NCBI GenBank assembly: GCA_022824205.1
Contig: JAJEAI010000171.1
Span: 1,193 to 65,192, forward strand
Direction of reading: 5' to 3'
Length of the DNA stretch: 64,000 bases
From: Candidatus Binatia bacterium
GTDB lineage: Bacteria > Desulfobacterota > Binatia > UBA9968 > JAJDTQ01
Position numbers and translations under genes: made by a program. The stretch's first letter is position 1. The number at the start of each line of letters is the position of its first letter. Shown here piece by piece: positions 1,292 to 39,703 of this stretch. Below the pieces are notes generated by a model that saw only the letters and a program-made list of their open reading frames with translations, was not told where the DNA came from and ran no database searches.

Positions 1292-2104
1292 GTGAGTCCC
1301 CGTGGTAGCTGGAATGCCCTGGCCATGAAACAGGCCGTGCAAGTCGCCCGCCCGGCCGGACCATGCCATATTCCGCCCATGCGCTTCTTCAACACCACCG
1401 GGCCGGTGCAGGCGGAGAAGCACTACAGCATCCCGCCGCTGAGCCGGCTGGATCTGGAAGACGTGCTAACGCTCATTCGCGATGAGCGTTACTTCGCTCT
1501 GCTGGCGGCCCGCCAGACCGGCAAGACGACTGCCCTGCTGGCGCTTCGAGAGCTGTTGAACAGCGGCACCGAGGGCGGCTACCGGTGTGTGTACGCCAAT
1601 GTCGAGGCGGCGCAGGCGGCGCGCGAAGACACCGAACGGTCCATGCGCGCGATCCTGAGCGAATTGGCTCACTGGGCACGCTCGACGTTGGGCGACGGAA
1701 CGCTGGCCGGGATGTGGCCCGGGATTCTTGCCGAGGCCGGGCCGAACGGCGCGCTTCGCGAGGCGCTGAGCCGCTGGTCCGAGGCCGACCCGCGGCCGTT
1801 GGTGCTGCTCATCGACGAGATCGACGCGCTGGTGGGCGACACTTTGCTGTCGGTGCTGCGGCAGCTTCGGGCGGGATATGTCCAGCGCCCCCGAGGCTTT
1901 CCCCAGAGCATCATCCTGTGCGGCGTGCGTGACGTGCGCGACTACCGGATCCATTCCAGCGCCGAGAAGGAGATCATCTCGGGCGGGAGCGCGTTCAACG
2001 TCAAGGCCGAGTCGTTGCGGTTGGGGGATTTCTCCGAGGCCGAGGTGCGCGGGTTGCTGGCACATCAAGGTGCTCTGCTTGCGCCCTTCCTGGAACCGGC
2101 GTAA
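1292..2104 (+). CDS. AAA-like ATPase domain protein (RQTGKT P-loop), probably a truncated fragment
   Basis: Motif ...RYFALLAARQTGKTTALLAL... followed by a hhhhDEID Walker-B-like stretch (LVLLIDEIDAL) resembles AAA-like/archaeal-ATPase domains (PF14516-like). Only 270 aa and it is wedged between two protease paralogs; its 5' end overlaps the repeated module. Confidence 0.5.
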   Translation: MSPRGSWNALAMKQAVQVARPAGPCHIPPMRFFNTTGPVQAEKHYSIPPLSRLDLEDVLTLIRDERYFALLAARQTGKTTALLALRELLNSGTEGGYRCVYANVEAAQAAREDTERSMRAILSELAHWARSTLGDGTLAGMWPGILAEAGPNGALREALSRWSEADPRPLVLLIDEIDALVGDTLLSVLRQLRAGYVQRPRGFPQSIILCGVRDVRDYRIHSSAEKEIISGGSAFNVKAESLRLGDFSEAEVRGLLAHQGALLAPFLEPA

Positions 2105-2207
2105 CGTCTGCCGTAACGAATCCGTCCCTCCGGCAACACGCGCGCGCCGGCGATTGGTGCCGTGTTCACGCGGACACGTCCCGCCTACGATCAGGCAAAG
2201 GCATCCC

Positions 2208-3320
2208 ATGGATTCAGCCTCGAATACACGATGCGCGACCGTGATCGTCGCAGCCTTTCTCGTTGTCGCGTTCTCCCTTCTCGGCTCGGTCTCACGCTCG
2301 GCGGCCGTGGACCTGGACCATGTCAGAGGCGGTGTATGGAAGGTCTGGAACTGGACCCCGGTGAAGAAACCGGGAGAGAAGAAGTGGAGAGTGGGGACCG
2401 CCTTCGCCATCGGGCCAAGATACATGGCGACCGCCCTCCATGTGCTGGCGTCGCACCGCAGGAGAGGGACCCCCATTGCCGACCTCATTCTGAAGTACTG
2501 GCATCGCGGCTACGTGTCGCCGCCTCTCCGAATCAAGAGAGTGGCGGCAATGTCTGCCGTTCATGATCTCGCCATCTTCGAGATCGGGAAGGACAACACC
2601 TATCTGCGGCTGGCGGAAGAACCGGTTCCGTCCGGTAGCAGGGGCTTGACGGGGTTCGGCTACCCGGAAGCGGCGGGTAAGGGACTGCGAGTCTTGAGGC
2701 AACTCGGCAACGGGATCACCGTCGATCACCGGGTCGCGTCTCAAATCTACATGGCGGTCAACATGGAGAAGCTGGGCGGGGCCAGCGGCGGACCTGTTCT
2801 GGATTCGAAGGGGAAGGTTGTCGGTGTCCAGGTCCAAGGCGCCGGCAACCTGTCCATCAACGTCACGATCCAACGTCTCTGGGATCTTGCCGATGGCAAG
2901 CTGGGAGTGATTTGCCCCGAGGTTGCCTCCTTCGATCGCTGTTATGAGACGGCAATGGAAGACATGAGAGGGCGCGCGGCAAAGAGAGACCCGGTCGCCG
3001 CCTACAGACTGTGGGAGCACTATTTCGATGGCGACCTCGAGGGCGGGTACGCCGACAAGCTTCATTTGCTCAAGGAAGCTGCCGAACAGGGACACGTCCT
3101 GGCGCAGGTTAACTTGGCGTGGCTTTATGCGCAGGGAGATGTCGTTGGTAAGGACTACCGGAAGGCCGACCTGTGGATGGCGCGGGCCGCGAAGCAGGAC
3201 CATCCGCCAGCCCTGTACGACTTGGGCAAATGGTATCAAGACGACGGCGACTCGCGGGCCGGACTGTTGTTGAGGAGAGCGGCCGCGGCAGGCTATCTGC
3301 AGGAAGACCAGTATGAGTGA
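2208..3320 (+). CDS. Secreted trypsin-like (S1) serine protease fused to C-terminal Sel1-like repeats, paralog 2 (370 aa)
   Basis: The ATG at 2208 gives MDSASNTRCATVIVAAFLVVAFSLLGS... (signal peptide). The rest is collinear with paralog 1: same catalytic motifs, Sel1 repeats and conserved 3' tail ending ...GYLQEDQYE*. The track ORF 1878-3320 has a spurious 5' extension. Confidence 0.8.
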   Translation: MDSASNTRCATVIVAAFLVVAFSLLGSVSRSAAVDLDHVRGGVWKVWNWTPVKKPGEKKWRVGTAFAIGPRYMATALHVLASHRRRGTPIADLILKYWHRGYVSPPLRIKRVAAMSAVHDLAIFEIGKDNTYLRLAEEPVPSGSRGLTGFGYPEAAGKGLRVLRQLGNGITVDHRVASQIYMAVNMEKLGGASGGPVLDSKGKVVGVQVQGAGNLSINVTIQRLWDLADGKLGVICPEVASFDRCYETAMEDMRGRAAKRDPVAAYRLWEHYFDGDLEGGYADKLHLLKEAAEQGHVLAQVNLAWLYAQGDVVGKDYRKADLWMARAAKQDHPPALYDLGKWYQDDGDSRAGLLLRRAAAAGYLQEDQYE

Positions 3321-3845: not shown

Positions 3846-4208
3846 ATGAGATTTCTGCTCGACCAGGACGTGTACGCAGCCACGGCCCGGCATCCGGAGA
3901 GTCTTGGACACGATGTCGTTCGTGCATCCGAAATCGGTCTCTCCCGCGCCACGGACGAAACGTTGCTTGAGGTCGCTTGTGAAGACGAAAGGGTGTTCGT
4001 TACTCGTGACAGAGACTTCGGGCGCATCGTGTTCCTGAATCGACAGCATGGGGCGGTTCTATACTTGCGTATGCTCCCCTCAACACAAGACGCCGTTCAC
4101 CGGGAACTTGACGCAGTACTGCAAACGTATGGGACAGACGAGTTGGCGAAGGCATTTGTCGTCGTCGAACCAGGTGGTCACAGGCTCAGACGACTGCCCT
4201 CGGGGTGA
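3846..4208 (+). CDS. DUF5615 family (PIN-like / Mut7-C-like) putative toxin
   Basis: MRFLLDQDV..., 120 aa, immediately downstream of and coupled to DUF433: a common two-gene arrangement. Confidence 0.7.
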   Translation: MRFLLDQDVYAATARHPESLGHDVVRASEIGLSRATDETLLEVACEDERVFVTRDRDFGRIVFLNRQHGAVLYLRMLPSTQDAVHRELDAVLQTYGTDELAKAFVVVEPGGHRLRRLPSG

Positions 4209-8593: not shown

Positions 8594-9619
8594 CTACCAA
8601 TACCGTTCGCGTATCCGGAGCACCTCCCGGATACGGGTCGCGATGCGCTCCCCGCTCCCGTCGAAGGAGGCGGCTTCTTCCGACTGCATGCACTCCAGCA
8701 CGGTGGCCACGGAGTTGCGCAGCGCGGCGAGATCGTATCCCCCTTCCAGAAGAAAAGCGATCTTGCCGCCGGTGTGTCTCCGCGCCAGCTCCAGCAACGC
8801 GTTGGCCATGACGCCGAAGCCGCGCTCGGTGACGCCCATGGCGCCGAGGGGATCGTCGCGGTGCGAGTCGAACCCGGCCGACACGAGCAGCCAGTCGGGC
8901 TCATAGCGCTCGATGGCCGGGACGATGATGTCCCGGAATACCGCCAGATACTCGGCGTCGCCGCAACCGGCCGGCAGCGGCACGTTTACCGTGTAGCCCT
9001 CTCCCCGGCCGTTCCCTGCCTCGTCCGCGGCTCCGGTGCCTGGATAGTACGGGTACTGGTGCGTCGACAGGAACAGCACGGACGGGTCGTCGTAGAACGC
9101 GTCCTGCGAGCCGTTGCCGTGGTGCACGTCCCAGTCCATGATGGCGACCCGCCGCGCGCCGTGTTTCTCCTGCAGATAGCGGGCGCCGATGGCCACCGTG
9201 TTGAACAGGCAGAACCCCATGCCGCGGTTCCGCAGCGCGTGATGCCCCGGCGGCCGCGCCATGGTGAAACCGTTGCCGTAGTCCGCCGCCGCCACCGCGT
9301 CCAGAAGCTGCAGGAACCCGCCCACCGCCATCAACGCCACGCCGAAGGAGTCCCGGCAGGTGATGGTGTCGCCGTCGAGAGCGAACCGGTTGTGCTCGGA
9401 AGTCGAGCGGACAAGGTCGATGTAGTCGGAACCGTGGCACAACTCCAGCTCCGCCTGCACCGCCGCTCGCAACGGCAGCAGCTCGAAGCGGTCGCCACCG
9501 GCCGCGACCTCGCCGGCGAGGTCGAGAAGCGTCTGGATCCGCTGCGGGTGCTCGGGGTGATACGGACCCGGTTCGTGCTTGAGGAACACCGGGTCGGTGA
9601 CGATGGCGGAACGGGGCAT
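8594..9619 (-). CDS. Histone deacetylase-family protein (acetoin utilisation AcuC / acetylpolyamine amidohydrolase-like)
   Basis: ...PPGHHA...DWDVHHGNG...GFDSHRDDPLG...EGGY: HDAC/arginase-fold signature. Confidence 0.85.
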   Translation of the reverse strand: MPRSAIVTDPVFLKHEPGPYHPEHPQRIQTLLDLAGEVAAGGDRFELLPLRAAVQAELELCHGSDYIDLVRSTSEHNRFALDGDTITCRDSFGVALMAVGGFLQLLDAVAAADYGNGFTMARPPGHHALRNRGMGFCLFNTVAIGARYLQEKHGARRVAIMDWDVHHGNGSQDAFYDDPSVLFLSTHQYPYYPGTGAADEAGNGRGEGYTVNVPLPAGCGDAEYLAVFRDIIVPAIERYEPDWLLVSAGFDSHRDDPLGAMGVTERGFGVMANALLELARRHTGGKIAFLLEGGYDLAALRNSVATVLECMQSEEAASFDGSGERIATRIREVLRIRERYW

Positions 9620-9678
9620 GCTCCGCGCAATCTACCATCATGCAGGATACGGGTCAAAGATCCGGCTTGTCCCCTTGT

Positions 9679-9804
9679 CCAGCAAAGACGGAATTTTGAG
9701 CGACGCCGTGCCGGCCAATCCGGTCCCGGTGGAACCGATGGCGGATGAGGTACGCTACGGTCTCACGCCATCAACCGGCCGGCCCATACCTCCATCGCCA
9801 CCCG
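9679..9804. repeat. Direct repeat A (~126 bp), decayed copy of the 3' end plus downstream region of the ADP-ribosylglycohydrolase gene
   Basis: About 90% identical to 10804-10932. The minus frame is broken relative to copy B. Confidence 0.7.
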
Positions 9805-9946
9805 CCGCCCGGTCGATTCGAAGAAGAACGCCAAGGGCTTTGTCGAGACCTGGAGGGGCTACGCCGCACGGCGGAGAGCGGTGGAGTGGACGACGCCGGG
9901 CGTCGGGGGCGAGCCTGGCGCCCCGGGGCCGGGAGGCGGGCGCCCG

Positions 9947-10441
9947 CTACGCCCGCCGCTCGGCGAGCTTTTGGCGCACCTCCTCGATCAGGCTGAGGAT
10001 GTTGGCGCGCGCCTTCTGCACTTCGTCCCGCTGGGCGAGTTCCTCTAGGGCCTCGACGACGCGTTCGTCGCCGAAGTCCACCATCTGCTGGATCGCTTTC
10101 TTGTGCGGCGGCTCCGCGTAGAAGGGGTAGGCGTCCGAGTGCTCCTTCGGCTCCCTTACGATGTGCAGCAGGTGTTGGCGTATCTCCTCGGTGTCTGGGG
10201 AGGGCTGCCACACCTCTCGCGGGCCCATTCCGCCGACGACGTACACCGGGCCGATGGGGATGGGGTCACGGTTGGGCCGGTGGTGGGGGTGGTTGGCGCA
10301 GTAGGTGTAGTAGGGGTTGGAGATTTCGAGCTGGCGAATCTCGCAGTGGCTGGGAATCTTGAAGTCGGCGTGGCCCCTCTCCCCGCCGTTGGCGCGGTTG
10401 AACCAGCAGGTCCCGCAGCAATCCGACCCTCCGTTCGGCAT
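9947..10441 (-). CDS. Hypothetical Cys/His-rich protein (164 aa)
   Basis: Good SD (aaggag, 8 nt upstream). N-terminus MPNGGSDCCGTCWFN...HCEIRQ...YCANHPHH has a possible metal-binding motif. No family recognised. Flanked by the 126-bp direct repeats. Confidence 0.5.
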   Translation of the reverse strand: MPNGGSDCCGTCWFNRANGGERGHADFKIPSHCEIRQLEISNPYYTYCANHPHHRPNRDPIPIGPVYVVGGMGPREVWQPSPDTEEIRQHLLHIVREPKEHSDAYPFYAEPPHKKAIQQMVDFGDERVVEALEELAQRDEVQKARANILSLIEEVRQKLAERRA

Positions 10442-10803
10442 CGTTCCGTTCTCCTTTCTGCTTGGCGAGGGCTACTTGGCGTCGCCGCCCAAAAAAGCTC
10501 GACCGTCAGAACTCCTAGCGCAAGCGCTTCCCTGTTCGTCCAGATTGTTGATCTCGGCACGGACTTCAACGAAAACCGCACATGGGGTTGAAATACCAGT
10601 TCGATGCCAGCGAGACGTTGTTGCTGACGCCGCCGCGAAGTCGTCAACCCCCCTTCCAACTCACCTCGCAACCCCCCTCCTACGCTCAACTCCCCCGGTC
10701 TCACACATCTCGAAACCTCTCAACGCCCGCCTATGAATCCCGTTGGCCCTCGCTCCAGGTATGCCATCCCGCGCCAATTCTCAGAACGAATTTGTCGTGC
10801 TTT

Positions 10804-10932
10804 TCCAGCAAAGACGGGGATTGTGAGCGACGCCGTGACGGCCAATCCGGTCCAAGTGGAGACCGATAGCGGATGAGGCACGCTATGGTCTCACGCCATC
10901 AACCGGTCGGCCCATACCTCCATCGCCACCCG
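10804..10932. repeat. Direct repeat B (~129 bp), overlaps the genuine 3' end of the ADP-ribosylglycohydrolase pseudogene
   Basis: See repeat A. Confidence 0.7.
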
Positions 10933-11936
10933 GTCTACACGCAATGACGCTACCTGCTCGCGCCAACGCCTCGGAATCGCCTCGATGCCGAATCGCGCGC
11001 CAAGCACCGCGCCCGCCACGGCGCCGTTGGTGTCGGTGTCCCCGCCGGCGTTGACGACGGCGATCAGCGCCTCCTCGAAGTCCGTGGCCCGACGCGCGCA
11101 CCACAGGGCCACCCGCATGGTCTTGAGGGTGTAGCCCATGTCCTGCCCATCCAGGCCAATCTCCTCCGGCATGGTGATATCCGAAACGTCCAAGGCTTGC
11201 GTCATCTTAGTCCGCGCGGGTGCGTCGATGCCGAACGGCGCCAAGGCATCGCCAAGCGTTTCCCGCGCCCGTTCGGCGCGCTCAACGAGCGGCAACGCGC
11301 TGTCCGGCGATTCCTGCAGGAGCGAAGCAATGGCGAGATTCACGAACACCGAGGACCAAGTGCAGCGGGGATCCCAGTGGGTGACCACGGCGCTGACGAT
11401 GGTGTTGCGAACCAGCGCCACGTCGTCATGTCGCCAGCGAATGGCAAGGGGCGCGCAGCGCATGACCGCGCCATTGCCGGCCGCGTTGCCGCCGGTCTCC
11501 TCCCAAGCCACGAAAGGAGCCTCCGAGCAGGCAAGCCCACCGGCTCACGCGCCGGCTGGAAGTCCGGCGGCGCCGAGCTGCGTCGGCGCACAGAGAGAGA
11601 CCGGTAACGTCTGGGCGGGCTGCCGCCGTATAGGGTCAATACCCGAGACGTCAAGTTGCCCATGCCAAGGCCGTTTTCCTCACCCCAGACCCAGAAACGC
11701 CGGGCGAGGTCGTCGGCATCCAGGGCCGCCGCGCCGTCACACGCCTCGGCTAGAATGACGGCCTGCGCCACGTCGTCATCGTCGGGGTAGCCCGGTTTCG
11801 CTTCGATGTCGCGCACGCCGTTGGGCCTGCGGAGGCGGATTTCCTCCCGCGGCCAACCCTCCCACGGAATGCCGAGCAGGTTACCGACCGCGAGCCCGAC
11901 CATGAGGCCACGACAACGATCCTGAAGTTCCATTGG
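10891..11936 (-). pseudogene. ADP-ribosylglycohydrolase (DraG/ARH family), frameshifted into two ORFs
   Basis: N-terminal part (ORF 11340-12002): MELQDRCRGLMVGLAVGNLLGIPWEG...DDDVAQA. C-terminal part (ORF 10891-11511): ...GNGAVMRCAPLAI...NAGGDTDTNGAVAGAVLGA.... The frame break is near 11.5-11.7 kb. Confidence 0.65.
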
Positions 11937-12235
11937 CGTATCCTTTCCTGTTGTTTTGAATGGCGGGCCGGTGGGGGCCGGTGGTTTGACCCCTTGATCC
12001 AAGCGGCGCGCAGCTTACGATGTCAAAGCCTTGACACTATCTGCTTGTGCATAACGACAAAAATCGATTTTTTGAAACGATCTGACGGTATTCATAAATC
12101 GTCTTGCGCCTGATAAAATCCGTGCCTTAGATCCGATTCCTCAAGACCTCTGTGGGACTTCCACCAACTTCCACCACTTGCATAGGTCCAAACGAACCAA
12201 GATAATAGCAGGGAGGCGACAAAGGGGAGGCCGGT

Positions 12236-12661
12236 ATGAAAGTCTTCATCAGCCACGCGCAGACGGATGACACATTTGTCAGGAAGGTCGAAGCCGGTCT
12301 GGAAAAGGTTGGTTTGGAGGTGTGGGACGCCAGCCGCGAAATCCTGCCCGGAGACAACTGGGCCGACAAAGTCGCGCAGGCGTTGAAGGAGTCCGAGGCC
12401 ATGGTCGTCTTCCTCACCCCGGACGCGCTACGGTCGCCTTGGGTCCGTTGGGAGATTGAGTATGCCTTGGGCGAACGGCGTTATCGCAAGCGTCTTGTCC
12501 CGGTCCTTGCAGGGAAACCGGACGGAGACGTCCCCTGGATCCTTCGGCACCTTCGCATGATCGACATGGAAGAATTGACCGAGGACGAAGGGGTCAACCA
12601 GATCTCACAGGCACTTCTGAAGACCGCCCAATCCCCGGCTTCGGCGGCGGAGACCCCTTGA
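12236..12661 (+). CDS. Stand-alone TIR-domain protein 1 (141 aa)
   Basis: KVFISHAQTDDTFVRKV...VWDASREILPGDNWADKV...AMVVFLTPDALRSPWVRWEIEYAL is a TIR fold signature with the conserved Glu in the W.E motif. AT-rich upstream region with SD ggggagg. Confidence 0.75.
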   Translation: MKVFISHAQTDDTFVRKVEAGLEKVGLEVWDASREILPGDNWADKVAQALKESEAMVVFLTPDALRSPWVRWEIEYALGERRYRKRLVPVLAGKPDGDVPWILRHLRMIDMEELTEDEGVNQISQALLKTAQSPASAAETP

Positions 12662-12665
12662 TGTC

Positions 12666-13076
12666 ATGCTGCCGAGGGAAGTATTCATATCTCATTCTGA
12701 CCAGGATCGACCGTTCGTTGTAGAACTGGTCTCCATGATGCGGCGCCATGGGCTGCCGGTCTGGTTCAGCAACACCGATATCGTGGGGGCAAGGCAGTGG
12801 CATGATGAGATCGGGGCGGCGCTTCGCCGTTGCGATTGGTTTGTGCTTGTCTTGTCTCCACGTTCAGTGGAATCCATCTGGGTCAAGAGGGAACTCCTGT
12901 TTACCCTCCAGCAACAGCGCTTCGACAACAGGATTGTCCCATTGCTCTACCAATCCTGCCAGTACGAGGAACTTTCCTGGACGCTGTCTGCCTTCCAGAT
13001 GATTGATTTCACAGATACCTTTGAGGCGGGTTGTCAGGCTCTGCTGCGTCTGTGGGGTTTGGGATTTCAGCGGTGA
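12666..13076 (+). CDS. Stand-alone TIR-domain protein 2 (136 aa)
   Basis: EVFISHSDQDRPFVVEL...LPVWFSNTDIVGARQWHDEI...WFVLVLSPRSVESIWVKRELLF is a second TIR domain. It starts 4 nt after the TIR1 stop. Confidence 0.75.
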   Translation: MLPREVFISHSDQDRPFVVELVSMMRRHGLPVWFSNTDIVGARQWHDEIGAALRRCDWFVLVLSPRSVESIWVKRELLFTLQQQRFDNRIVPLLYQSCQYEELSWTLSAFQMIDFTDTFEAGCQALLRLWGLGFQR

Positions 13077-13220
13077 CGAGACACGGTGCAAATGCCGTAA
13101 ATCGATAAACCGACGTAGTCCCGCGGACAAGCGAAGCCCCTGCCTTGTCCTTCAGGCGGTCGGTCTCTCACTCTTTGACTCCCCCCCGCAAATGCCTTAG
13201 CCTACCCTCTGGGAGTCGAA

Positions 13221-13493
13221 ATGTTTGGTATCGGAATGCCCGAGCTGCTCTTGATCCTGGCCGTGGCCTTGATCGTCCTGGGGCCCAAGAAGTTGCCCGA
13301 GATGGCGCGCGCCCTGGGCCGTGGGCTGGCCGAGTTTCGCCGCACCACGGATGACATGAAACGCGAATTGCAGACCGCGGCCGACGAGATCGAGACGCCT
13401 CCGCCCGCCGAGAACACGCATTCCGAACCGTCCGGAGAAGGCGCCCCCGCCAATACCATGTCTCCAGCGGGCGATCCCCCCACGAAAGAGTGA
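13221..13493 (+). CDS. tatA: Twin-arginine translocase subunit TatA/E
   Basis: [41 protein letters not shown]. Confidence 0.85.
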
Positions 13494-13567
13494 ACGCGGA
13501 CGAAGGAGCGGGCGCGGAAGAGAGCGCCGGCGCGGACGAGGAGGAGCGCCTGTCGGACGACGCCAGC

Positions 13568-14311
13568 ATGTCGCTCACCGCGCATCTGGAGGAGCTGCGT
13601 TCCCGCCTCATCAAGTCCGCCGTGGCCGTGCTCCTGGCTTTCCTGGCCTGCTACACGGTGGCGGGCTGGCTCATCGCCTTCATGACCGCGCCCCTCCTGC
13701 GCCTGGAGGCCGCGGGTCTCACCGTCATCGGCACGGGCGTCGCCGAGGCCTTCTTCGCCAAGCTCAAGGTCGCCTTCGTGGCCGCGGTCTTCGTGGCGTT
13801 GCCGGTGCTCCTGTGGCACGCTTGGCAGTTCGTGGCGCCGGGCCTCTACAGCACCGAGAAGCGCTACGCCAGGGCCTTCGTGGTCTACGGCACGCTGTTT
13901 TTCCTGCTGGGGGCGGGGTTCTGCTACGTCGTGATCTTCGACGTGGGCTATCGCTTCTTCCTGGAACAATACGCGCAACTGGACGTCCGCCCGGCCATTC
14001 GCGTGAGCGAGTACCTGGGGTTTTCGGCCAAGCTCATGCTGGCCTTCGGCACCGTGTTCGAGTTGCCGGTGGTGGGGGTGTTCCTGGCGCGGGTGGGGCT
14101 CATCGACCACCGCATGATGATGCGGCACTTCCCCTACGCCCTGCTCGGCATCGTGGTGCTGGGCGCCGTGCTCACGCCGCCCGACGTGGTCTCGCAGATC
14201 CTGCTGGCGCTGCCGCTGACCGCGCTCTACGGACTGACCATCGTGCTGGTCTATTTCATGAGGCGGAAGGACGCGGGGACGGATGAAGGGGACGAGGGGG
14301 ACGAAGAATAG
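13568..14311 (+). CDS. tatC: Twin-arginine translocase subunit TatC
   Basis: MSLTAHLEELRSRLIK... with 6 TM helices. An alternative GTG start at 13490 overlapping the tatA stop is also possible. Confidence 0.85.
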   Translation: MSLTAHLEELRSRLIKSAVAVLLAFLACYTVAGWLIAFMTAPLLRLEAAGLTVIGTGVAEAFFAKLKVAFVAAVFVALPVLLWHAWQFVAPGLYSTEKRYARAFVVYGTLFFLLGAGFCYVVIFDVGYRFFLEQYAQLDVRPAIRVSEYLGFSAKLMLAFGTVFELPVVGVFLARVGLIDHRMMMRHFPYALLGIVVLGAVLTPPDVVSQILLALPLTALYGLTIVLVYFMRRKDAGTDEGDEGDEE

Positions 14312-28957: not shown

Positions 28958-29869
28958 ATGCGACTAATACACCCGATCTATCTCGATATACCGATGCTCG
29001 TGTCATTCGCGGCGGCAATCGAGGGTGGCCTGTCATTCGGAACCCAACTGACACGAGAGGAATCCAGTTCCACCCTGGCGACCGCGGAAGGCGGGGCGAA
29101 ATTTGGTCTGAGCAGTCTGTTCGGCCAATTTCTCGATCTGTCGGCCGATATCGATGCGAAGGGTACGCACGAGGGTATGGAACGATCTGTGGAGAAGAGT
29201 TCACGATCTCACACGGAGGCTTCTGTCGCGATTCTACTCTATGACAGGTTGCGCAACGACTCTGGTTACATTGTCGATCTCGATATCCTAGACGACGCCA
29301 AGAATGTAGAACCTGGAGCACTGGTCGAACTCGCCGGCACTGTCGAAAAGAACGCCATCGACGCCATGATTGACTACATAGATGCGGTGAATATCCTGGC
29401 CAGTTTGGGATCGGATGAGCCACGAAATCCTCAGGGTTCAACGAGTGGGAAACGTCGCGGTTCAGCCAGTGTCAGGAACAGACAGGAGAGCGAGGGTCCA
29501 CTGGAGCACATCCGAGATTCACTCGACAAAGACCGTAAGCGGACACCGATTTCCAATGTGCTGCTTCGATGCACGGTGCCGTCCAACGTCACAGGGGTCG
29601 TAACGTTGCGTACGGAGAATCTTCGAGACCTCACCCTGAGCGAGCTCCATAAGAACAGCGTACGCGTCCTTGGCAAGGTGACCAGGGTCATCGATCGAGG
29701 TGAGGGCATGAGCTCTTTCGAGAATTACGGAATGGCACTGATGCAACCGGAGAAACTACAGACTCTTCTGCGTGGTCTGTGTGAAACTGAGGAGATTACA
29801 CTCGACCTCAGCGAGGTGCAGGTGCAAGGCCCAGCGCTTCAGATATTGCCTTTGATGATATTTGTCTGA
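28958..29869 (+). CDS. Hypothetical protein (303 aa), low-GC, no family recognised
   Basis: Local GC clearly below the genome average; starts 50 bp after the LLM gene. Confidence 0.5.
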   Translation: MRLIHPIYLDIPMLVSFAAAIEGGLSFGTQLTREESSSTLATAEGGAKFGLSSLFGQFLDLSADIDAKGTHEGMERSVEKSSRSHTEASVAILLYDRLRNDSGYIVDLDILDDAKNVEPGALVELAGTVEKNAIDAMIDYIDAVNILASLGSDEPRNPQGSTSGKRRGSASVRNRQESEGPLEHIRDSLDKDRKRTPISNVLLRCTVPSNVTGVVTLRTENLRDLTLSELHKNSVRVLGKVTRVIDRGEGMSSFENYGMALMQPEKLQTLLRGLCETEEITLDLSEVQVQGPALQILPLMIFV

Positions 29870-29875
29870 AAGCCG

Positions 29876-30464
29876 TCACGCTCCGGACTGACGATTCACC
29901 TCGACCTCCACGTTCCGGATCCTTTCCATCAACGCATCGAACCGCGGTGCCTCGTCGCGAATGATGCTGGCGGTCCGCATCGCCTCGTAGTCCGATTCGA
30001 GAAGGACGAGTTGGTCTTCGTCGGGAACGAGCCTCAGCCGGCCGTCCAGGCAATGATTGTAGTTGGCGTAGGTGGCGTTGAAGAAAACCGTCTTATGACG
30101 GACGACATCCTCGAAGATAACGCGGTCGGTGAGGGCCGCTCGGCTGGCGTTGTGGTGGGCGAGGCACGCCAAGTCGAACCAGTGCCGAGATATCCGTTCC
30201 GGGTTCTGCGAAAGCCTGCGCCTGTGGCATTCGACATGGATGAGGGTGGCTGAAACGGTCGATGATTCCGTAGACCTTCGAAAGGGATGTGCCTCCCTTG
30301 AAGGCCATCGGGTGAAGATCCGGTATGGAGAAGAGTATCTGTAGAACCCAACAAATCCAGATGTCCTTCTCCAAGATGACCGCCGGCCGCCCTGACCGGA
30401 CGGCAATGGTCTCAAGGATGTCTCTCTGGTCTCGGGCATTCAACGAGAGGAAGGCTTCAGCCAT
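29876..30464 (-). pseudogene. AbiEii/AbiGii-family nucleotidyltransferase toxin, frameshifted
   Basis: N-terminal ORF (30093-30464): ...RPAVILEKDIWICWVLQILF...FKGGTSLSKVYGIIDRFS.... C-terminal part in another frame (29876-30439): ...HWFDLACLAHH.... Confidence 0.65.
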
Positions 30465-31065
30465 GGGCGGTGTCCTGGCCGGGGGCGTTGAGTGCCATCG
30501 CCATCCACGCGGGAACGTCGGCCGACCGTAGCTTCTCGAACTCCGCCGGGCTCATGGCAGACGCGATCGTGGCGACAGTCTCCGGTGTCACGTTGTCCTT
30601 GCCGAGATACCAGAGGGCGGAGAGTGCCAAGCCCGCCATCTCGCCGGCGAATTGAAGCCTCCGACTGTTCGACGTGTGGATCATCTTGACCGTGATGTTG
30701 CCGATGTGGATCGGGCGGCTGGACGCGCTGGTATGGAACACGGGCGCGCTAGGCACCTGGGTGCTGAGCCCGAACCGCCGCGCCGCTTCCGCGCCATGAA
30801 TTTGGACGGTTTCGCCATTGTGTTTGGCGATGGCTTGAACCACGTCGAAGACGCTGGGGACGACATTGCCAACGAAACGGTTCTTGCGCGGGCGAACGAA
30901 TACGCCCCGGGAGAGCCGCTCGAGTTCCCCCTCGTGGACGATTCGTGAAAGGGCACGGTCGACGGCTCCCCGCCGTCCGCAGTTGGCAAAGCGCGATGTT
31001 GTAAAGGGCTTGCCCGTGGGCAGGCTGCGTATACGGTTTCGAATGGCCTCCGCAGTGGACATCAT
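30457..31065 (-). CDS. AbiEi-family antitoxin / transcriptional regulator
   Basis: MMSTAEAIRNRIRSLPTGKPFTTSRFANCGRRGAVDRALSRIVHEGELERLSRGVFVRP is an AbiEi_4-like N-terminus. 8-bp overlap with the AbiEii start. Confidence 0.65.
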   Translation of the reverse strand: MMSTAEAIRNRIRSLPTGKPFTTSRFANCGRRGAVDRALSRIVHEGELERLSRGVFVRPRKNRFVGNVVPSVFDVVQAIAKHNGETVQIHGAEAARRFGLSTQVPSAPVFHTSASSRPIHIGNITVKMIHTSNSRRLQFAGEMAGLALSALWYLGKDNVTPETVATIASAMSPAEFEKLRSADVPAWMAMALNAPGQDTAHG

Positions 31066-31523
31066 AGGACTCCAGCTTGTCTTAAAATACAGTGGTTTTT
31101 CGGACAAATCAAGAGCCTCGGAGAGGGGTGCTGTGCAAGAGCCTGTGTCAGCAAGGGAGAGGGTACTCCAGTGGGTTGACCGAGGCGCACAACGGGTAAA
31201 CGCCAGGATCAGTCTCGATGATTTCGAGCCCCTCCCGAGTTCAATCAACCCCGTTCGTCGGTGATAAGTTCGTAGCTGGTACTGCGCCCGCGGAGATTAT
31301 GGGCACCATTCTCCGCAAACCTCCCTCATCAGGATGTTGTTGCACCAATTCTGGAGACTGCGGCGAAGGGCTGTCGATGTCCGGCCGCTGATTGGAAGTA
31401 CGGGTCCCATGGTCTGACTTTGCCCTAAGGAGAGTCATCGGAGAACATTTTTCAGAGATCTAAGCATATGTTAGGATTATTCATATTCAATAGCTAGTTT
31501 TGCAGGACTTAGGAGCAGTTCTC

Positions 31524-33086
31524 ATGTCCTCTAATAAATTTAGCAGCAGCACTCACCTCCCGAATCATTTTTCAGGCCCCATAACCGTTTTTCAGGAGCG
31601 CCGGCTGTCAGTGCCGGCTACCCCAGCCGGTTATGCCGCACTCATCGGAGCCTACGGTCTGCGGGTACCGGTGCCGCGTACCCTGAGCGCCACGGGGGAA
31701 CGGCACAGGATCATTGAAGAAGGCGGCTGGCGCATCTATTCGCCGCGTCATGCGCCGAAACCCAGCCTGGAGGGCCACCTGACCTTCGCCCTCAAGCACG
31801 AGGGGCTCGACCTCTTGGTCCTCAAGCGCCTGTTTGCCGCCACGGGTCCGGGACCCGTCGAGAATCTGGTCAGGGTTAAGCCGACGGGCGCCTACGCTCG
31901 ACGCGTTTGGTTTCTCTACGAGTGGCTGACCGGACACCGGCTTGACTTGCCCGACGCCGAACGCGGGGCGTACGCTTCGGTCGTCGATCCGGGCCGCCAG
32001 TATGCCGCCCGCCCCGAGACCTCCAGGCGGCATCGGGTCAAGAACAACCTGCCGGGTACGCCGGCATTCTGTCCGCTGGTGTTTCGCACCGAAACCCTGG
32101 AACGTTTTGCGGCCATGGAGTTGCAGGCGCGGGCGCGGGAGGTCGTGGACGCGGTCCCGAAAGACCTGTTGGCGCGTACCGCGGCGTTTCTGCTGCTGAA
32201 GGATTCCAGGTCCAGCTTCGCCATTGAAGGCGAGCATCCGCCCCAGGACCGTATTCAGCGGTGGGGCCGGGCCGTAGGCGAGGCCGGACGCCGGCCGATC
32301 GATCTTGACGAGCTGTTGCGCCTGCAACGCATCGTCATCGGCGATGCCCGCTTTGTACAGCTCGGACTGCGCACGGAAGGCGGCTTTGTCGGTCAACGGG
32401 ATCGCGAGTCGGGGGCGCCGATCCCCGACCATGTCAGTGCTCGATCCGAGGATCTGGCTAGCCTCGTCGAAGGGCTGATCGCGTTCGACCAAGGGGCCGC
32501 GCAACAGCTCGATCCCGTCGTGGCCGCGTCGGTCATCGGCTTCGGTTTTGTCTACATGCATCCGTTTGAGGACGGCAACGGCCGCATCCACCGTTACCTG
32601 ATCCACCACGCCCTCGCCCGGCGCGGGTTCAACCCGCCCGGCGTGGTGTTCCCGGTATCGGCGGCCGTGCTGGAACGGATCGACGACTATCGCGCCGCAC
32701 TCGAAGACTATTCGCAGCGGTTGCTTCCCGTGGTGGACTGGGAACCCACCGGGAACGGCAATGTACGGGTGCTCAACGATACCGGTGATTGTTACCGTTT
32801 CTTCGACGCCACGCCACAGACCGAGTTTCTATACGGGTGCGTGCAGCAGACAGTCGAGCGGGATCTGCCGGAGGAAGCTGCCTTCCTGAAACGCCATGAG
32901 GGGTTTCGTACGGCATTGAGTCTGCTGGTCGACATGCCCGAAAGGGTGTCCGACCTCCTGTTCCGCTGCCTCCACCAGAATGGAGGGAGGTTGTCCCGCC
33001 GCCGCAGGGAACGGGAATTCGCCGCGCTGACCGATAATGAAGTGGAGCGCATCGAAGCGGCCTATCGCGAGAATTTCCAAGCCTGA
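31524..33086 (+). CDS. Fic-family protein (AMPylator-type, HPFxxGNGR motif)
   Basis: ...YMHPFEDGNGRIHRYLIHHAL...; AT-rich promoter and SD aggagcag. Confidence 0.85.
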   Translation: MSSNKFSSSTHLPNHFSGPITVFQERRLSVPATPAGYAALIGAYGLRVPVPRTLSATGERHRIIEEGGWRIYSPRHAPKPSLEGHLTFALKHEGLDLLVLKRLFAATGPGPVENLVRVKPTGAYARRVWFLYEWLTGHRLDLPDAERGAYASVVDPGRQYAARPETSRRHRVKNNLPGTPAFCPLVFRTETLERFAAMELQARAREVVDAVPKDLLARTAAFLLLKDSRSSFAIEGEHPPQDRIQRWGRAVGEAGRRPIDLDELLRLQRIVIGDARFVQLGLRTEGGFVGQRDRESGAPIPDHVSARSEDLASLVEGLIAFDQGAAQQLDPVVAASVIGFGFVYMHPFEDGNGRIHRYLIHHALARRGFNPPGVVFPVSAAVLERIDDYRAALEDYSQRLLPVVDWEPTGNGNVRVLNDTGDCYRFFDATPQTEFLYGCVQQTVERDLPEEAAFLKRHEGFRTALSLLVDMPERVSDLLFRCLHQNGGRLSRRRREREFAALTDNEVERIEAAYRENFQA

Positions 33087-34235: not shown

Positions 34236-34523
34236 CTATGCGGCAGCGATCCGTTTGACCTTGAGGGTCCGCTCCAAGTGGCGGGACCTCGCAAGGTCGA
34301 AGGCCAACTGCATGCCTAGCCATGTCTCGGGAGTGGAACCGAATGCCTTGGATAAGCGATAGGCCATGTCGATCGAGATGGACGCTTTCTCATTGACCAA
34401 GTTGGATAGCGTCTGGCGCCCGACCCCGAGCCACCTTGCGCCATCGGTGACCGACAGTCCCAGAGGCTTCAAGCAGTCTTCGCGCACGATGGCGCCGGGA
34501 TGTACGCGGTTTTTCATCGTCAT
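34236..34523 (-). CDS. higA: HigA-family antitoxin (XRE HTH), orphan
   Basis: ...VHPGAIVREDCLKPLGLSVTDGARWLGVGRQTLSNLVNEKASISIDMAYRLSKAFG.... No HigB-sized ORF fits in the 120-nt upstream gap. Confidence 0.8.
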   Translation of the reverse strand: MTMKNRVHPGAIVREDCLKPLGLSVTDGARWLGVGRQTLSNLVNEKASISIDMAYRLSKAFGSTPETWLGMQLAFDLARSRHLERTLKVKRIAAA

Positions 34524-34643
34524 TGAGAGCCTCCGAATGGTAGTCCAGTTAATCGACGTCCACGGCGTGCCCGCCAGCCCGAAGTCGCCGCCCTTGGCGA
34601 GGGAGGGGAAGACGGCGTTGAACCCTGCTTCGTTGCCCGTCCC

Positions 34644-37600
34644 TCAATGTCGCAGCCTCTGGTCGATTTCCGCTTCGTCGTCTTGCCGTAGCGCCTCCCG
34701 GTCGTAGTCGGCCGCGATATTCTCCAGCATACTCCCCACGTAGGGGTAGTGAGGGCTCCGCTGTCTGGCCCAGCTTCGATACTCCTTCGCAAGGTCGCGT
34801 TCCTGCTCCCCTCCCTCCCCGATGGCGCGCGAGACCACGCCGCGTCCATTGTGGATGCCGATGCTGAATCCTGAACCGATATCCGGGGATCCAATCTGTT
34901 CCATCGCTTCGCATACTGCAAGACAAGGCTTGATGCCGTCGTTATCGGCCGGAGCCCTCGACAAAATCTGACCGATATAGTGATCTCCGATTTTCACGCG
35001 GCCATACTCCGCGCATAGTCGCCGCGCCTCGGCTATCCACTGAGACAACACCTCCACATCAATGTCGCCTCCTTCCCCGATACCCGGAACAAGGCTGATC
35101 CGTTCAAGAAGCCCATAAGCGGCGGCAGTCAGTGCGGCCCTTTTCTCGGTGTCTTCGGTTTGCCATTCAGGAGGATCCTGTCCTCCGTCGTCACGTTTGA
35201 ATACAAGTGCCAGGACTTGAACAAAGCCAAAAGGAGATTCGGAGAGCCACTGCTCTAGGTTGGGAATCCCGTGCTCACTGTATTCCAACGTTTGGATATA
35301 CATAAATTCCAATCGTACCATCTCGTCTCGGCTGACGTCGCCGCGGCCGTTGAGTTCGCTCAATGCCTCTGAGATATAGTGACTCTCAAGCCTATATTGG
35401 TCCGCGGATTCAGTGCCTGCGGTGCCGGCATCGAAGAGCAGACGTTTCAGCCGCAACGACTCGATTTTGGACAACTCCAGGTGCGCAACGTGGAATGCAG
35501 CACGGGGACGTTTCACGTCCAGTAGGCGATCGATGAGCTCAATCAGTTCCGCCTCGTCGTAACGGTTCCATTCCGGGACGACCGCCCGCCAATAGTGATC
35601 TTGGACCTCCGCGTCGTACCGGTCGAGCAGGCGCCACGTGCGTCGCCCTAACGGAGCGCAACGGTATAGTCGGGCGATCTGAGCGGTGTCAGCGTCCACG
35701 GCGTCAGCCGTAAGGAGAGTGCCGCGCGCGTCGTCGCTGGCGGACCAGAGAAACCCCCGAATGCATAACTCGGCCTTCTCCCGCAGATGGTCGGTGACAG
35801 AAAGGCACTGCCTCAGAAAATCAACTCGCGCATCTTCCTCTGGGATGCAGGATTCCAACCCTGCCCCAACGACACCGGGGGCGCCGGTATCCGACAGTAA
35901 CGCGGTGACGCCCTCGAATCCGCGTGCGGTCCATATCTCCTTCATCGCAGCAGTGCGGAGCCTGCGCGTTGTCTCCGCGTCCTTCTCGTAGTCGCGTTCT
36001 TCGTCCTCGATTTCGTCGGAGGAAGGCTCAATCCAGGAATTCGTGAACAGCCAAGCATGCCGGACCACCGGATCCCGTGGTTCCAGCCGATCGTATGCCA
36101 CGCGCGCCCGGTCTACCGCCGTACCTTGCAGGCCGTGCCGACGACCGCGTCGGGTAAACGCGAGCCGGCGAAGCCGCTCTCGAAGATCGGCTTTGGCCCT
36201 GTCGTCCGTTTCCGAGTCCGCCCATGTATCGATCAAGTCCCAAACCGTGTTCTGGCCTTCGTCGGGCAATTCCTGAATTCGCTCCAGGAGATCTCCAAGC
36301 GTCCGTTGGTCATGCTTCGGCCATTCGAGGGCGAGCGCGAGTGCCTTGCGCCTGAACTCATGGAATTGTCCCGCCGTTACGTTAGCGCTCGGCGAGTCGT
36401 CCCGCCAGCGCGGACGGTAGCTGGGCAGCGCCATTTGGGGGCCGGTATCCAACTGTGCGACACAAACTTGCCAGCCGATATCCGGAAACCGCTTCGTCAA
36501 CGTCTTAAGGGCCGCTACCCGTTCCGCGAGCGAAGCGGATGTCTGCGGTAACCACGACCGGTAGAGCGCGGCAAGGCTGGCAGAGGGTTTGTTTGCCCAG
36601 TTGTCGGTGATCGTGATTGTCGACAGCCGCGCGAGTATCAAGCTCACGCGCCCGAGATGATTCCAGGCGAGACAGTCCAAGGCCCACAATAGTCCCGTTC
36701 GCAGGCATCGACCGAAAGGGCCGCTTTCGGCGGGCTTGAGCAGGCCGAAGACGGTTGGCTCCGGCTCTCGCAAATCGGTTTCGATCAGCTTCAGAAACGT
36801 GTCCGGAGCGGCCTCGGCATAGTTTGGAAGATCGTCCTGGTGCGAAAGCAGCTTGTCAATTGTCAGCGGCGTGAGCAGCCGTTGGATGATAGAGGAAACC
36901 CGAGCGTCGAGATCGACACCCAGCCGGTTCCGGAACAGCGTGTCGCCGTGGACCGAGAGGAGCACCAGCGTTTCGCGGATGCCCACTCGCAGTGCGGTGG
37001 AGTGATCGCGTACCTTGCCATGCACGTTGGCGAGCCATCTCTCGTCTTCCGGCAATTCCAGCGCGGGATCGGTTTCCGAAAGCACTCGTTCCGCTACTGA
37101 GAACAAATTGTCGAGATCCGATTCGGTCACGAATCTGGCAATCCCGAACAGGGAGTCGATCCGTGAGACCACTCCCCGATATTCCCCTGTCGACCATAGG
37201 GGTGAGTCTTCGAGAGCCAACAACTCCATGACGCCGGATTCCATGTCGTTGGCGTCGCCCCCCCAGCCGAGTCGCCGGACAATTTCGCAGTCGGCTGGAG
37301 AGGTCTTACGCCAAGCACCAACCAGCGCCGCCGGCAGCAACTTCCGCGCCGTCTGAGCGTCCTCCGCCCAGGCAGGGCTACGGACCGCCGGGCTCGTGGA
37401 TAGCCGTCGGCGCAGGACGGTCGGTGATCGACCCGATTCCCGGGCGAGCAGGTCAATCTTGTCATTGGGTAGTTCCATCGATTCCAGGGCGTCCGAGAAG
37501 TCTTTCCAACCCGGAAGCCCGAGCCTGATGTCGGAATTGGCGTTTACATCGTTACCGGGCCGGACAATGACGCAGTGACAACGCCGGTGGAGATCCCCGA

Positions 37601-38720: not shown

Positions 38721-38889
38721 GGCTCAGACTCCTTGCAAACCGTGTGTTCACGGGTTATTGTACTCCGCAACGCTACACAATACAACACTCAACGCTAACC
38801 CTGTACTAAAGAGACTGTCAGCCAGTGTATTGTCGGCGAGCAAGACTGAGTTGGAGGGAACCGTTCAAGCGAAGGAGGAGCGGAAAAAC

Positions 38890-39201
38890 ATGAGGGTTGT
38901 CATCGATTGCAACGTCCTGGTTTCGGCAGCTCGGTCTGGAGGAGTTTGTGGCAAGATCATTGTCGAGGCGATACGTGACCATGAGGTCGTCATTGCCAAG
39001 CCCATTGTAGAGGAATACGACGCGATTGCCGGTCGACTCGCGGTCTTCGGTCTCAATGACCCCGATGATGAAGTCTATCTGGCAACCGCGGTGGCTGGCG
39101 GCGCTGTTCTCATCACCGGCAACAGGCGGGATTTCGTGAAACCGCGGTACGGGCCGGTCGAGATCATCTCTCCTCGTGCATTTCTGGAGCGACCGGAATG
39201 A
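38890..39201 (+). CDS. PIN-domain protein (putative TA toxin), no adjacent antitoxin
   Basis: MRVVIDCNVLVSAARSGG..., 103 aa. Confidence 0.7.
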   Translation: MRVVIDCNVLVSAARSGGVCGKIIVEAIRDHEVVIAKPIVEEYDAIAGRLAVFGLNDPDDEVYLATAVAGGAVLITGNRRDFVKPRYGPVEIISPRAFLERPE

Positions 39202-39268
39202 GAAATGACAATGTGCAACAGGCTGAGATCTGGCGCGTCAGGTCCCGTGAGCAATCAACCTGACTGCG

Positions 39269-39598
39269 TTACGAGCCTCCCTTGCTACGCCGAGGCGCTA
39301 GACCGCCTTCCCGCCTACCGCCCCGTTCCCTACGAAGCCGGGTGATGTCGGCGATAACGTCTTCCATGATCTCGTCCTCGGAGCGACCGGCGTCCTCGGG
39401 CGAGAGTTCAATTCGGGTGAGAATGGAAGCAACTTGGTCGGCGGCCGCGTTACGGTCCACCACTTCCTTGGGACGAAAAAGGATGCCGTCTCCAACCACG
39501 GTTGCCTCCAAGAGGTCGCCCTCATGCAGATCGAGCCCTCTGCGCAGTTTGGCCGGAATGGTGACTTGGAACTTCGGCTTCACGGTGACTAGAGACAT
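39269..39598 (-). CDS. AbrB/MazE/SpoVT-family DNA-binding protein (antitoxin-like), convergent with the PIN gene
   Basis: MSLVTVKPKFQVTIPAKLRRGLDLHEGDLLE.... Confidence 0.65.
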   Translation of the reverse strand: MSLVTVKPKFQVTIPAKLRRGLDLHEGDLLEATVVGDGILFRPKEVVDRNAAADQVASILTRIELSPEDAGRSEDEIMEDVIADITRLRRERGGRREGGLAPRRSKGGS

Positions 39599-39703
39599 GG
39601 TAAGCCTCGCGTAGGAAAGTAGTAAAGTTGTCCTATCACGGGGTGCGTATATACGCAATATCGGACCGCCCGACACGTGGTCACGGCTCGCCCTCTGACT
39701 TGG

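Follow-up and report, generated by a model that had tools for sequence, protein, structure and literature searches.

TIR domains are central to the immunity of bacteria, plants and animals. Bacterial TIR domains are known as makers of a signal for a linked effector, as in Thoeris, as effectors fused to a sensor, as in SPARTA, CBASS, Avs and retrons, or as single short proteins. Here we analyse a stretch of 64,000 nucleotides from Candidatus Binatia bacterium (contig JAJEAI010000171.1, positions 1,193 to 65,192), hereafter called the window, in which two adjacent genes on the forward strand, TIR1 (12236-12661, 141 aa) and TIR2 (12666-13076, 136 aa), each encode a stand-alone TIR domain. The two genes constitute a widespread, fixed, co-diverging and unnamed two-gene cassette, which recurs in nine or more lineages of phylum or class rank and on metagenome contigs by the hundreds. 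A fixed heteropair of bare TIR domains is a layout distinct from the known bacterial TIR arrangements, and the pair probably represents a self-contained module, so far uncharacterised, with a TIR defence or toxin function; a broken Thoeris system is the less likely reading.

Among the described systems, staphylococcal Thoeris (ThsA-ThsB1-ThsB2) likewise places two different small TIR proteins side by side in one unit, one of them, ThsB1, being a sensor and the other, ThsB2, an enzyme; once bound to the phage capsid protein, ThsB1 recruits ThsB2 and activates it (PMC12578639). By analogy, ThsB1 and ThsB2 would offer the best template for how TIR1 and TIR2 might share the work. The staphylococcal system, however, needs the linked SIR2-SLOG effector ThsA, whereas the pair studied here has no recurrent partner in about 130 loci. 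Furthermore, TIR1 and TIR2 are canonical TIR_2 domains with structures like those of SPARTA and SARM1, and they are only weakly homologous to ThsB (E 1e-8 to 1e-10). [quoted passage not shown] Compared by layout and not by sequence, they resemble the pair in having little beyond the TIR domain, but they are single genes and not an obligate heteropair of fixed order. Finally, SPARTA (TIR-APAZ with a short prokaryotic Argonaute) and SARM1 provide the closest solved structures to TIR2, and one of the best PADLOC models is that for an Argonaute-associated TIR. The activity of SPARTA and SARM1 arises when TIR domains meet in asymmetric head-to-tail pairs; the pair, in contrast, has no Argonaute, APAZ, ARM or SAM domain, and its second TIR would come from a separate gene.

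An earlier note on this stretch, made from the sequence alone, had described an operon of two small TIR genes lying 4 nt apart, each retaining the catalytic glutamate. The open reading frames (ORFs) are as it described them, with 4 nt between the TIR1 stop codon and the TIR2 ATG, and both proteins are TIR domains by hidden Markov model. Over their full length they match the Pfam family PF13676 (TIR_2; cutoff 28 bits) with 97.4 bits for TIR1 (E 1e-27) and 92.3 bits for TIR2 (E 4e-26). TIR1 also exceeds the cutoffs for PF01582, PF10137 and PF08937 (ThsB_TIR; 34.6 bits, cutoff 21.2), the last of which has no match in TIR2. The two proteins are 32% identical to one another. Both begin at the first TIR strand, with no signal peptide and no N-terminal extension, and TIR1, which is acidic (pI 5.0), is a single TIR domain with a disordered tail of 8 residues.

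When compared with solved structures, both proteins align to AbTir, BtTir and PdTIR, and TIR1 additionally aligns to metazoan TIR-STING, MAL and MyD88. The catalytic glutamate of the ‘W..YE’ motif in AbTir and BtTir corresponds to E73 in TIR1 (WVRWE) and to E76 in TIR2 (WVKRE), so that the glutamate is indeed kept in both. AlphaFold2 models (mean confidence, pLDDT, 82.7 for TIR1 and 91.2 for TIR2) show an ordinary TIR fold of five alternating strands and helices. Every top Foldseek match of either model in the PDB is a TIR domain with probability 1.00; the nearest to TIR1 are the TIRs of MyD88, SPARTA and AbTir, and the nearest to TIR2 are those of SPARTA and SARM1 (TM-score 0.70-0.79).

The putative active site is more strictly conserved in TIR2 than in TIR1. 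Among 148 non-identical TIR2 sequences, W72 and E76 of the WxxxE motif are 100% conserved, and conservation of 99-100% extends over W72, K74 and E76 of WVKRE together with W45, D47, R55, C56, S70, P92 and W105. Among 156 TIR1 sequences, E occupies position 73 in 83% and D does so in 15%, while W occupies position 69 in 82%. The two families also differ in median net charge, which is -8 (acidic) for TIR1 and -2 (near neutral) for TIR2. The same TIR2 alignment contains strongly conserved cysteines and histidines (C56, 100%; C98, 97%; C123, 86%; H10, H28 and H46, 97-99%), which may form a metal or redox site.

Neither protein has a family of its own in PADLOC or NCBIfam. For both proteins the best PADLOC models are effector-type TIRs (SAVED-TIR and Argonaute-associated TIR, E 5e-13), ahead of the ThsB models, which match weakly (E 1e-10 to 1e-5). 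In NCBIfam all matches fall far below cutoff and no family fits TIR1 or TIR2; the Thoeris type III family ThcB4, for example, scores 31 and 21 bits against a cutoff of 220 bits. No dedicated TIR1-TIR2 model exists in PADLOC v2 or in NCBIfam release 20, and the lack of cultured models in these lineages may be the reason. A large survey of signalling systems based on TIR proteins distinguished 29 types of effector, removed standalone TIR proteins outside multigene operons, and does not mention the TIR1-TIR2 pair (bioRxiv 10.64898/2025.12.03.692087). Judged by profile scores and predicted folds, the nearest characterised relatives of the pair appear to be NAD-depleting effector TIRs.

The pair had been taken for a local oddity, and this view does not survive a wider search. 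At E<=1e-5, homology extends to 408 clusters of 90% identity for TIR1 and to 858 for TIR2, and nearly all of the listed matches are stand-alone proteins of 130-150 aa. A TIR1 profile run against one genome per species gave 43 loci, labelled as Binatia, Latescibacterota, Poribacteria, Gemmatimonadota, Spirochaetia, Acidobacteriota/Pyrinomonadaceae, KSB1, SAR202 and one gammaproteobacterium. Besides metagenome-assembled genomes (MAGs), the pair is present in soil, sediment and lake metagenomes, where a TIR2 profile scan gave at least 494 confirmed stretches. In the best 80 of these metagenome loci, a full-length TIR1 lies upstream of 72 of the 73 full-length TIR2 genes with room upstream, in 70 cases within 150 nt. 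The order and strand of the two genes do not vary among pairs, and their spacing is short: among 97 distinct pairs the median is 18 nt, and 92% lie no more than 40 nt apart. Rather than a peculiarity of one genome, we are thus dealing with a fixed family.

The two genes also diverge together. The TIR1 and TIR2 distance matrices are correlated with a Mantel r of 0.69, compared with a maximum of 0.16 in 999 permutations, and TIR1 is the faster evolving partner (mean distance 0.49, versus 0.36 for TIR2). A HMMER search covering 1.84 billion representatives brought to light a natural fusion, P0368 (288 aa), in which TIR1 is followed by TIR2 in one polypeptide. The top full-length scores in that search belong to giant proteins with 3-7 tandem TIRs, whose weak domain matches are summed, and we do not count these as family members. 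As observations in their own right, these giant proteins (P0361-P0365 and others) are 1000-2300 aa long and distantly related to the pair, and P0361 ends in WD40-like repeats; P0436 is a decayed TIR1-TIR2 fusion; and P0382 joins a TIR2 domain to a C-terminal extension of ~500 aa of unassigned nature. Two contigs, moreover, carry tandem arrays of several diverged TIR1-TIR2 pairs whose copies are 73-78% identical (L057, 481-2830; L060, 4631-6929), which suggests diversification through duplication.

No third gene travels with the pair. The earlier note had reported no adjacent Thoeris-type effector and a layout unlike the described Thoeris, CBASS, STING or NLR architectures, and both statements hold: the PADLOC models for ThsA, SIR2, SLOG and Macro have no match among the 47 ORFs of the 64-kb window at E<=1e-8, the list of 21 families found there being complete. 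A ThsA-like effector in an orthologous operon would have changed the picture, yet neither such a gene nor any recurrent partner was seen among the orthologous loci by gene clustering and the summaries described below. In an all-versus-all clustering of ORFs lying within 3.5 kb of the pair at 133 loci, no family occurs in more than 15 loci. The neighbour families that do recur follow the synteny of a lineage: one group of soil acidobacteria, for example, has an XdhC-like gene, Latescibacterota have a DHDPS/DAO/BMC block, and Poribacteria have a fixed block. An HNH gene downstream was considered as a partner and set aside, since it occurs in 14 of the 133 loci, mostly in one syntenic lineage. 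We also summarised the Pfam and PADLOC families of 150 representative first and second neighbours (25 of 132 and 25 of 123 families listed). The listed families are heterogeneous, including ThiC, SecA, SelO, TatC, ATP synthase, some HNH, type I restriction-modification (RM) genes and transposases. No Argonaute model occurs among the 21 PADLOC families of the window or among the listed neighbour families. A general partner gene can therefore be excluded, while rare single Thoeris effectors may occur among the neighbour families beyond the 25 listed per summary.

One neighbour deserves separate mention. Several loci in Latescibacterota and Gemmatimonadota carry, upstream of the pair, a 164-aa membrane protein of the 8xMP family (PF24838), which UniRef names ‘RipA family octameric membrane protein’ and which is often preceded in turn by a 138-aa ThsB_TIR protein. 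Among distant 8xMP homologues, ThsB_TIR and 8xMP form a two-gene unit of their own in defence islands that lack TIR1-TIR2. Since this unit stands without the pair elsewhere and 8xMP has a dedicated ThsB_TIR partner, we regard it as a neighbouring system and reject 8xMP as the effector of the pair. A literature search on ‘8xMP’ and ‘octameric membrane protein’ returned nothing relevant.

Phage or plasmid carriage was likewise looked for and not found. TIR2 has no relatives in 2.9 million viral contigs (IMG/VR), no match in 50,697 phage records, and nothing above 37% identity in 72,556 plasmids; for TIR1, the IMG/VR contigs contain only one distant TIR, at 26% identity.

Both genes are maintained by selection, but they are not lost equally. 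The ratio of nonsynonymous to synonymous substitution rates (omega) is 0.07-0.16 for TIR1 and 0.10 for TIR2, and overall 0.07-0.26, as expected of genes under purifying selection. We examined the state of TIR2 at 49 TIR1 loci, consisting of the scan loci, the window and the loci from a protein look-up, with duplicates removed and one locus with a disrupted TIR1 (L048) left out. TIR2 is intact and directly downstream at 32 of these loci, a remnant or pseudogene at 6 (L001, L007, L032, L036, L038 and L051), and absent from 11, so that about a third of TIR1 loci lack an intact TIR2. The reverse loss is essentially not seen, a full TIR1 being missing for only 1 of the 73 TIR2 genes mentioned above. 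In Poribacteria that lack TIR2, TIR1 remains under purifying selection (omega 0.13-0.27). Because loss of TIR2 is common and loss of TIR1 is essentially not seen, the pattern fits a situation in which a genome cannot retain TIR2 in the absence of TIR1, whereas TIR1 by itself does no harm or is of use.

We consider it the leading explanation, with a probability of roughly 45%, that the pair is a self-contained TIR-TIR module in which TIR2 is an NADase, TIR1 is its sensor or restraining partner, and the output is direct depletion of NAD+. TIR2, the more conserved protein, with its invariant WxxxE, would be the NAD+-cleaving subunit. TIR1 would be a co-evolving partner that binds TIR2 in a predicted complex, and would either hold TIR2 inactive until it is triggered, for example by phage infection or by some other stress, or nucleate an active TIR2 assembly. 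The output would then be growth arrest or abortive infection through direct NAD+ depletion, with no signal passed to a separate effector; this output seems the most likely one because no effector gene travels with the pair. We infer the physical complex, the NADase activity, the trigger and the defence role, and the model rests on the TIR fold and motifs, the fixed order and operon, the co-divergence, the fusion, the lack of a recurrent partner, the purifying selection and the asymmetric loss of TIR2.

A more specific form of this model, which we offer tentatively, is an unnamed two-component TIR system of mostly uncultured phyla, in which TIR1 is both the guard or inhibitor and the trigger-sensor of the NADase TIR2, and in which the heterocomplex would act as sensor and effector without any other domain. 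If so, the heterocomplex would be a minimal form of TIR immunity and would mirror in bacteria the paired-TIR logic known from plant RPS4/RRS1. In that plant pair, one partner restrains the activity of the other. The heterodimer of two different TIRs in RPS4/RRS1 (PDB 4c6t) is among the Foldseek matches of both of our models, but RPS4 and RRS1 are eukaryotic multidomain NLRs (receptors with nucleotide-binding and leucine-rich-repeat domains), and the likeness is an analogy with no specific relatedness. Should the proposed division of labour be true, two proteins of ~16 kDa would provide a small and tractable system for the control of one TIR NADase by another TIR.

Several observations weigh against the leading explanation. 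The mean pairwise identity of TIR2 across phyla is ~64%, which is unusually conserved for immune sensors, and the cassette is stably syntenic within several lineages; this conservation and stable synteny fit a conserved cellular cue or a toxin-antitoxin role equally well. TIR1 may also be an enzyme and not purely a regulator, since 98% of its sequences have an acidic residue at the catalytic position. Defence genes are only modestly associated with the pair, whose neighbours are mostly housekeeping genes, and in the window itself the flanks are a gene resembling histone deacetylases (HDAC-like) and tatA/tatC. Moreover, the loss counts compare two differently sampled sets, namely genomes rich in sponge-type MAGs and mostly soil metagenomes.

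It is important, then, to weigh the self-contained module against other accounts of the same observations. Type II toxin-antitoxin modules include some with NAD-targeting toxins, for example RES-Xre and MbcT-MbcA. If the pair were an addiction or stress module of this kind, TIR2 would be a constitutively dangerous NADase toxin and TIR1 its protein antitoxin, with no phage-specific sensing; the mechanism would be shared with the model above and the biological role would differ. Much of the architecture suits such a module: two small co-directional genes spaced by 3-40 nt with a putative promoter of their own, an upstream gene less conserved than the downstream one, NAD+ as a likely target, orphan TIR1 genes left behind after loss of TIR2 and almost no orphan TIR2, as expected of a toxin that needs its antitoxin, the tandem multi-copy arrays, and a frequent position among toxin-antitoxin genes (HigB/HTH, PIN/FitA, PemK). 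The putative antitoxin, however, is itself a TIR domain, without a DNA-binding or other antitoxin-type domain, and it carries E or D at the catalytic position almost throughout. In addition, TIR1 stays under purifying selection when alone, which is unusual for an orphan antitoxin, and the charge contrast between the two proteins is weak. We judge an addiction module unlikely. Slightly less likely still is a split or degenerate Thoeris system, in which TIR1 and TIR2 would be ThsB1/ThsB2-like synthases of a messenger of the cyclic ADP-ribose type and the effector would lie elsewhere in the genome or have been lost. Thoeris systems of types I-XI link the TIR gene, ThsB, to a cognate effector gene, which may be of the SIR2-SLOG, Macro-TM, SLOG, caspase-like, DUF2270 or another kind. 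TIR1 does pass the ThsB_TIR cutoff and both proteins match several PADLOC ThsB models; systems with several ThsB proteins and a split between sensor and cyclase have been described (PMC12578639), effectors come in many types (bioRxiv 10.64898/2025.12.03.692087), and the 8xMP membrane protein lies just upstream in some loci. Nevertheless, the genes of a defence system are normally linked, and neither the orthologous loci nor the window provides the missing gene; 8xMP is paired with its own ThsB_TIR; and the structural neighbours of the pair are the effector-type TIRs of SPARTA and SARM1 and not ThsB.

The least probable account, to which we attach very little weight, is that the pair mediates interaction with a eukaryotic host, the TIRs of sponge symbionts mimicking MyD88/TLR adaptors and thereby damping host immunity, as has been proposed for TIRs of the TcpB/BtpA type. 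Lists of eukaryote-like proteins in sponge symbionts include TIR domains (PMC6790972, PMC7848895), MyD88, MAL and metazoan TIR-STING are among the best PDB matches of TIR1, and the closest homologues come from phyla of the sponge microbiome (Poribacteria, Latescibacterota, Binatia, Gemmatimonadota and Spirochaetia), a sponge origin being deduced from names only. Yet metagenomes from soil, sediment and lakes contain the pair in abundance, and it occurs in MAGs labelled Pyrinomonadaceae, Acidobacteria and SAR202. Bacterial TIR virulence factors such as TcpB/BtpA, TcpC and PdTIR, furthermore, belong to host-associated bacteria, are delivered to host cells and have an extra N-terminal targeting region that TIR1 and TIR2 lack. 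The WxxxE of TIR2 is invariant, and mimicry would leave the obligate two-gene architecture unexplained.

In the window, the cassette is compositionally foreign to its host, since its GC and GC3 (the fraction of codons ending in G or C) are well below those of host genes. GC is 60.1% in TIR1 and 54.5% in TIR2, compared with 65.3% for the window and 66-68% for the flanking genes, and GC3 is 0.73 and 0.65, compared with 0.88-0.93 for neighbouring core genes. An AT-rich spacer on the same strand (12003-12235, 48.5% GC) precedes TIR1, and only its last ~64 nt (12172-12235) are common to other genomes; blastn homology to three other loci, namely those of the two closest Binatia genomes (L006 and L007) and L001, starts at 12171-12175. 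Within this conserved block lies a promoter-like site on the forward strand (12178-12206), composed of TTGCAT (12178-12183), a 17-nt spacer and GATAAT (12201-12206). Both hexamers are unchanged in the alignment of the four genomes, including L001, where the chromosomal context is different. The site thus travels with the cassette and is a putative promoter. A generic promoter scan skips it because its -35 element matches at only 3 of 6 positions, and picks 12091-12119 instead; we prefer the conserved site because the one picked by the scan lies outside the conserved block. A Shine-Dalgarno-like sequence, AAGGGGAG (12222-12229, forward strand), is located 6 nt 5' of the TIR1 ATG and is conserved in the same alignment. 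For riboswitches and other RNAs in the leader, an Rfam search of 11900-13300 at E<=1 gave no match.

TIR1 of the window is 95% and 92% identical to its counterparts in L006 and L007, respectively. In these three genomes the left flank is syntenic up to the HDAC-like gene (8594-9619) and the right flank is syntenic from tatA on (tatA, 13221-13493, downstream of TIR2, followed by tatC, 13490-14311), with the cassette in the same place in all three. Synonymous divergence (dS) among the three genomes within the cassette genes is 0.34-0.65. The cassette is therefore older than the split of the three genomes, and its acquisition was not recent, because the slot between the HDAC-like gene and tatA is the same in all of them at this divergence. 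The foreign composition from which the earlier note had suggested horizontal acquisition holds, but a recent event is not supported. In L007, TIR2 is deleted except for its first ~32 codons.

Adjacent to the spacer, on the reverse strand, lies an ADP-ribosylglycohydrolase gene (ARH, 10891-12002), whose proximity to the TIR genes had been read as a meaningful part of the layout. This gene is split between two frames, with 11340-12002 covering Pfam positions 1-113 and 10891-11511 covering 110-287, which could reflect a pseudogene or an assembly indel. It forms part of a 2.5-kb segment specific to the window (9673-12171), which contains a Cys-rich ORF of 164 aa besides ARH; at the same site L006 has a different segment of 4.3 kb, and L007 has nothing. 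Since ARH is frameshifted and sits in an insertion missing from L006 and L007, it is an incidental insertion and not a partner of the TIR pair, and the adjacency loses its meaning. The other ORF of this insertion (9947-10441, reverse strand) encodes a Cys/His-rich protein (MPNGGSDCCGTCWF...), has a host-like GC3 of 0.89, and matches nothing in Pfam, PADLOC, NCBIfam or PHROGs. Its length coincides with that of the 164-aa 8xMP found 5' of the pair in L003, but the two show no similarity, and we reject homology between them.

A defence role is favoured by the surroundings of the pair in some genomes, where it is embedded in a type I RM locus or adjoins ThsB_TIR with 8xMP, Mrr or toxin-antitoxin genes. 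The unit of ThsB_TIR (PF08937, 138-146 aa) followed by 8xMP (~164 aa) is conserved in its own right in L134-L139, and lies upstream of the pair in L012, L013, L016, L022 and L025. It adjoins type I RM, AbiU2 HEPN and GmrSD genes in defence islands, and resembles a system of the Thoeris type whose effector would be a membrane protein. Two related genomes (L003 and L050) differ in what lies between hsdM and hsdS of a type I RM locus: this slot contains 8xMP-TIR1-TIR2 in one case and other cargo in the second, consisting of HigB/HTH, a gene of 75 aa, TIR1 alone and DUF6615. This slot looks like a defence hotspot with turnover of cassettes.

The window contains further segments of low GC3. One island (28958-33086) carries DUF6414, an AbiEii-like gene (29876-30439), an AbiEi/DUF6088 gene (30457-31248) and a Fic protein of 528 aa (31500-33086); the PADLOC SoFic model matches one of the 47 ORFs of the window. 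Another segment (34236-39676) contains a gene for a helix-turn-helix (HTH) protein, one for a protein of 1358 aa that carries an HTH at its N-terminus (34644-38720) and one that is MazE-like (39269-39676). The PADLOC candidate system PDC-S24 matches one window ORF with E 2e-201, and this ORF is probably the 1358-aa protein. Finally, two paralogues of a trypsin-like peptidase (59-1162 and 1878-3320), which are 81% identical and low in GC3, match the protease part of the PADLOC RT-Protease_XI models, and are followed by a DUF5615/PIN-like gene (3846-4208) that is also low in GC3.

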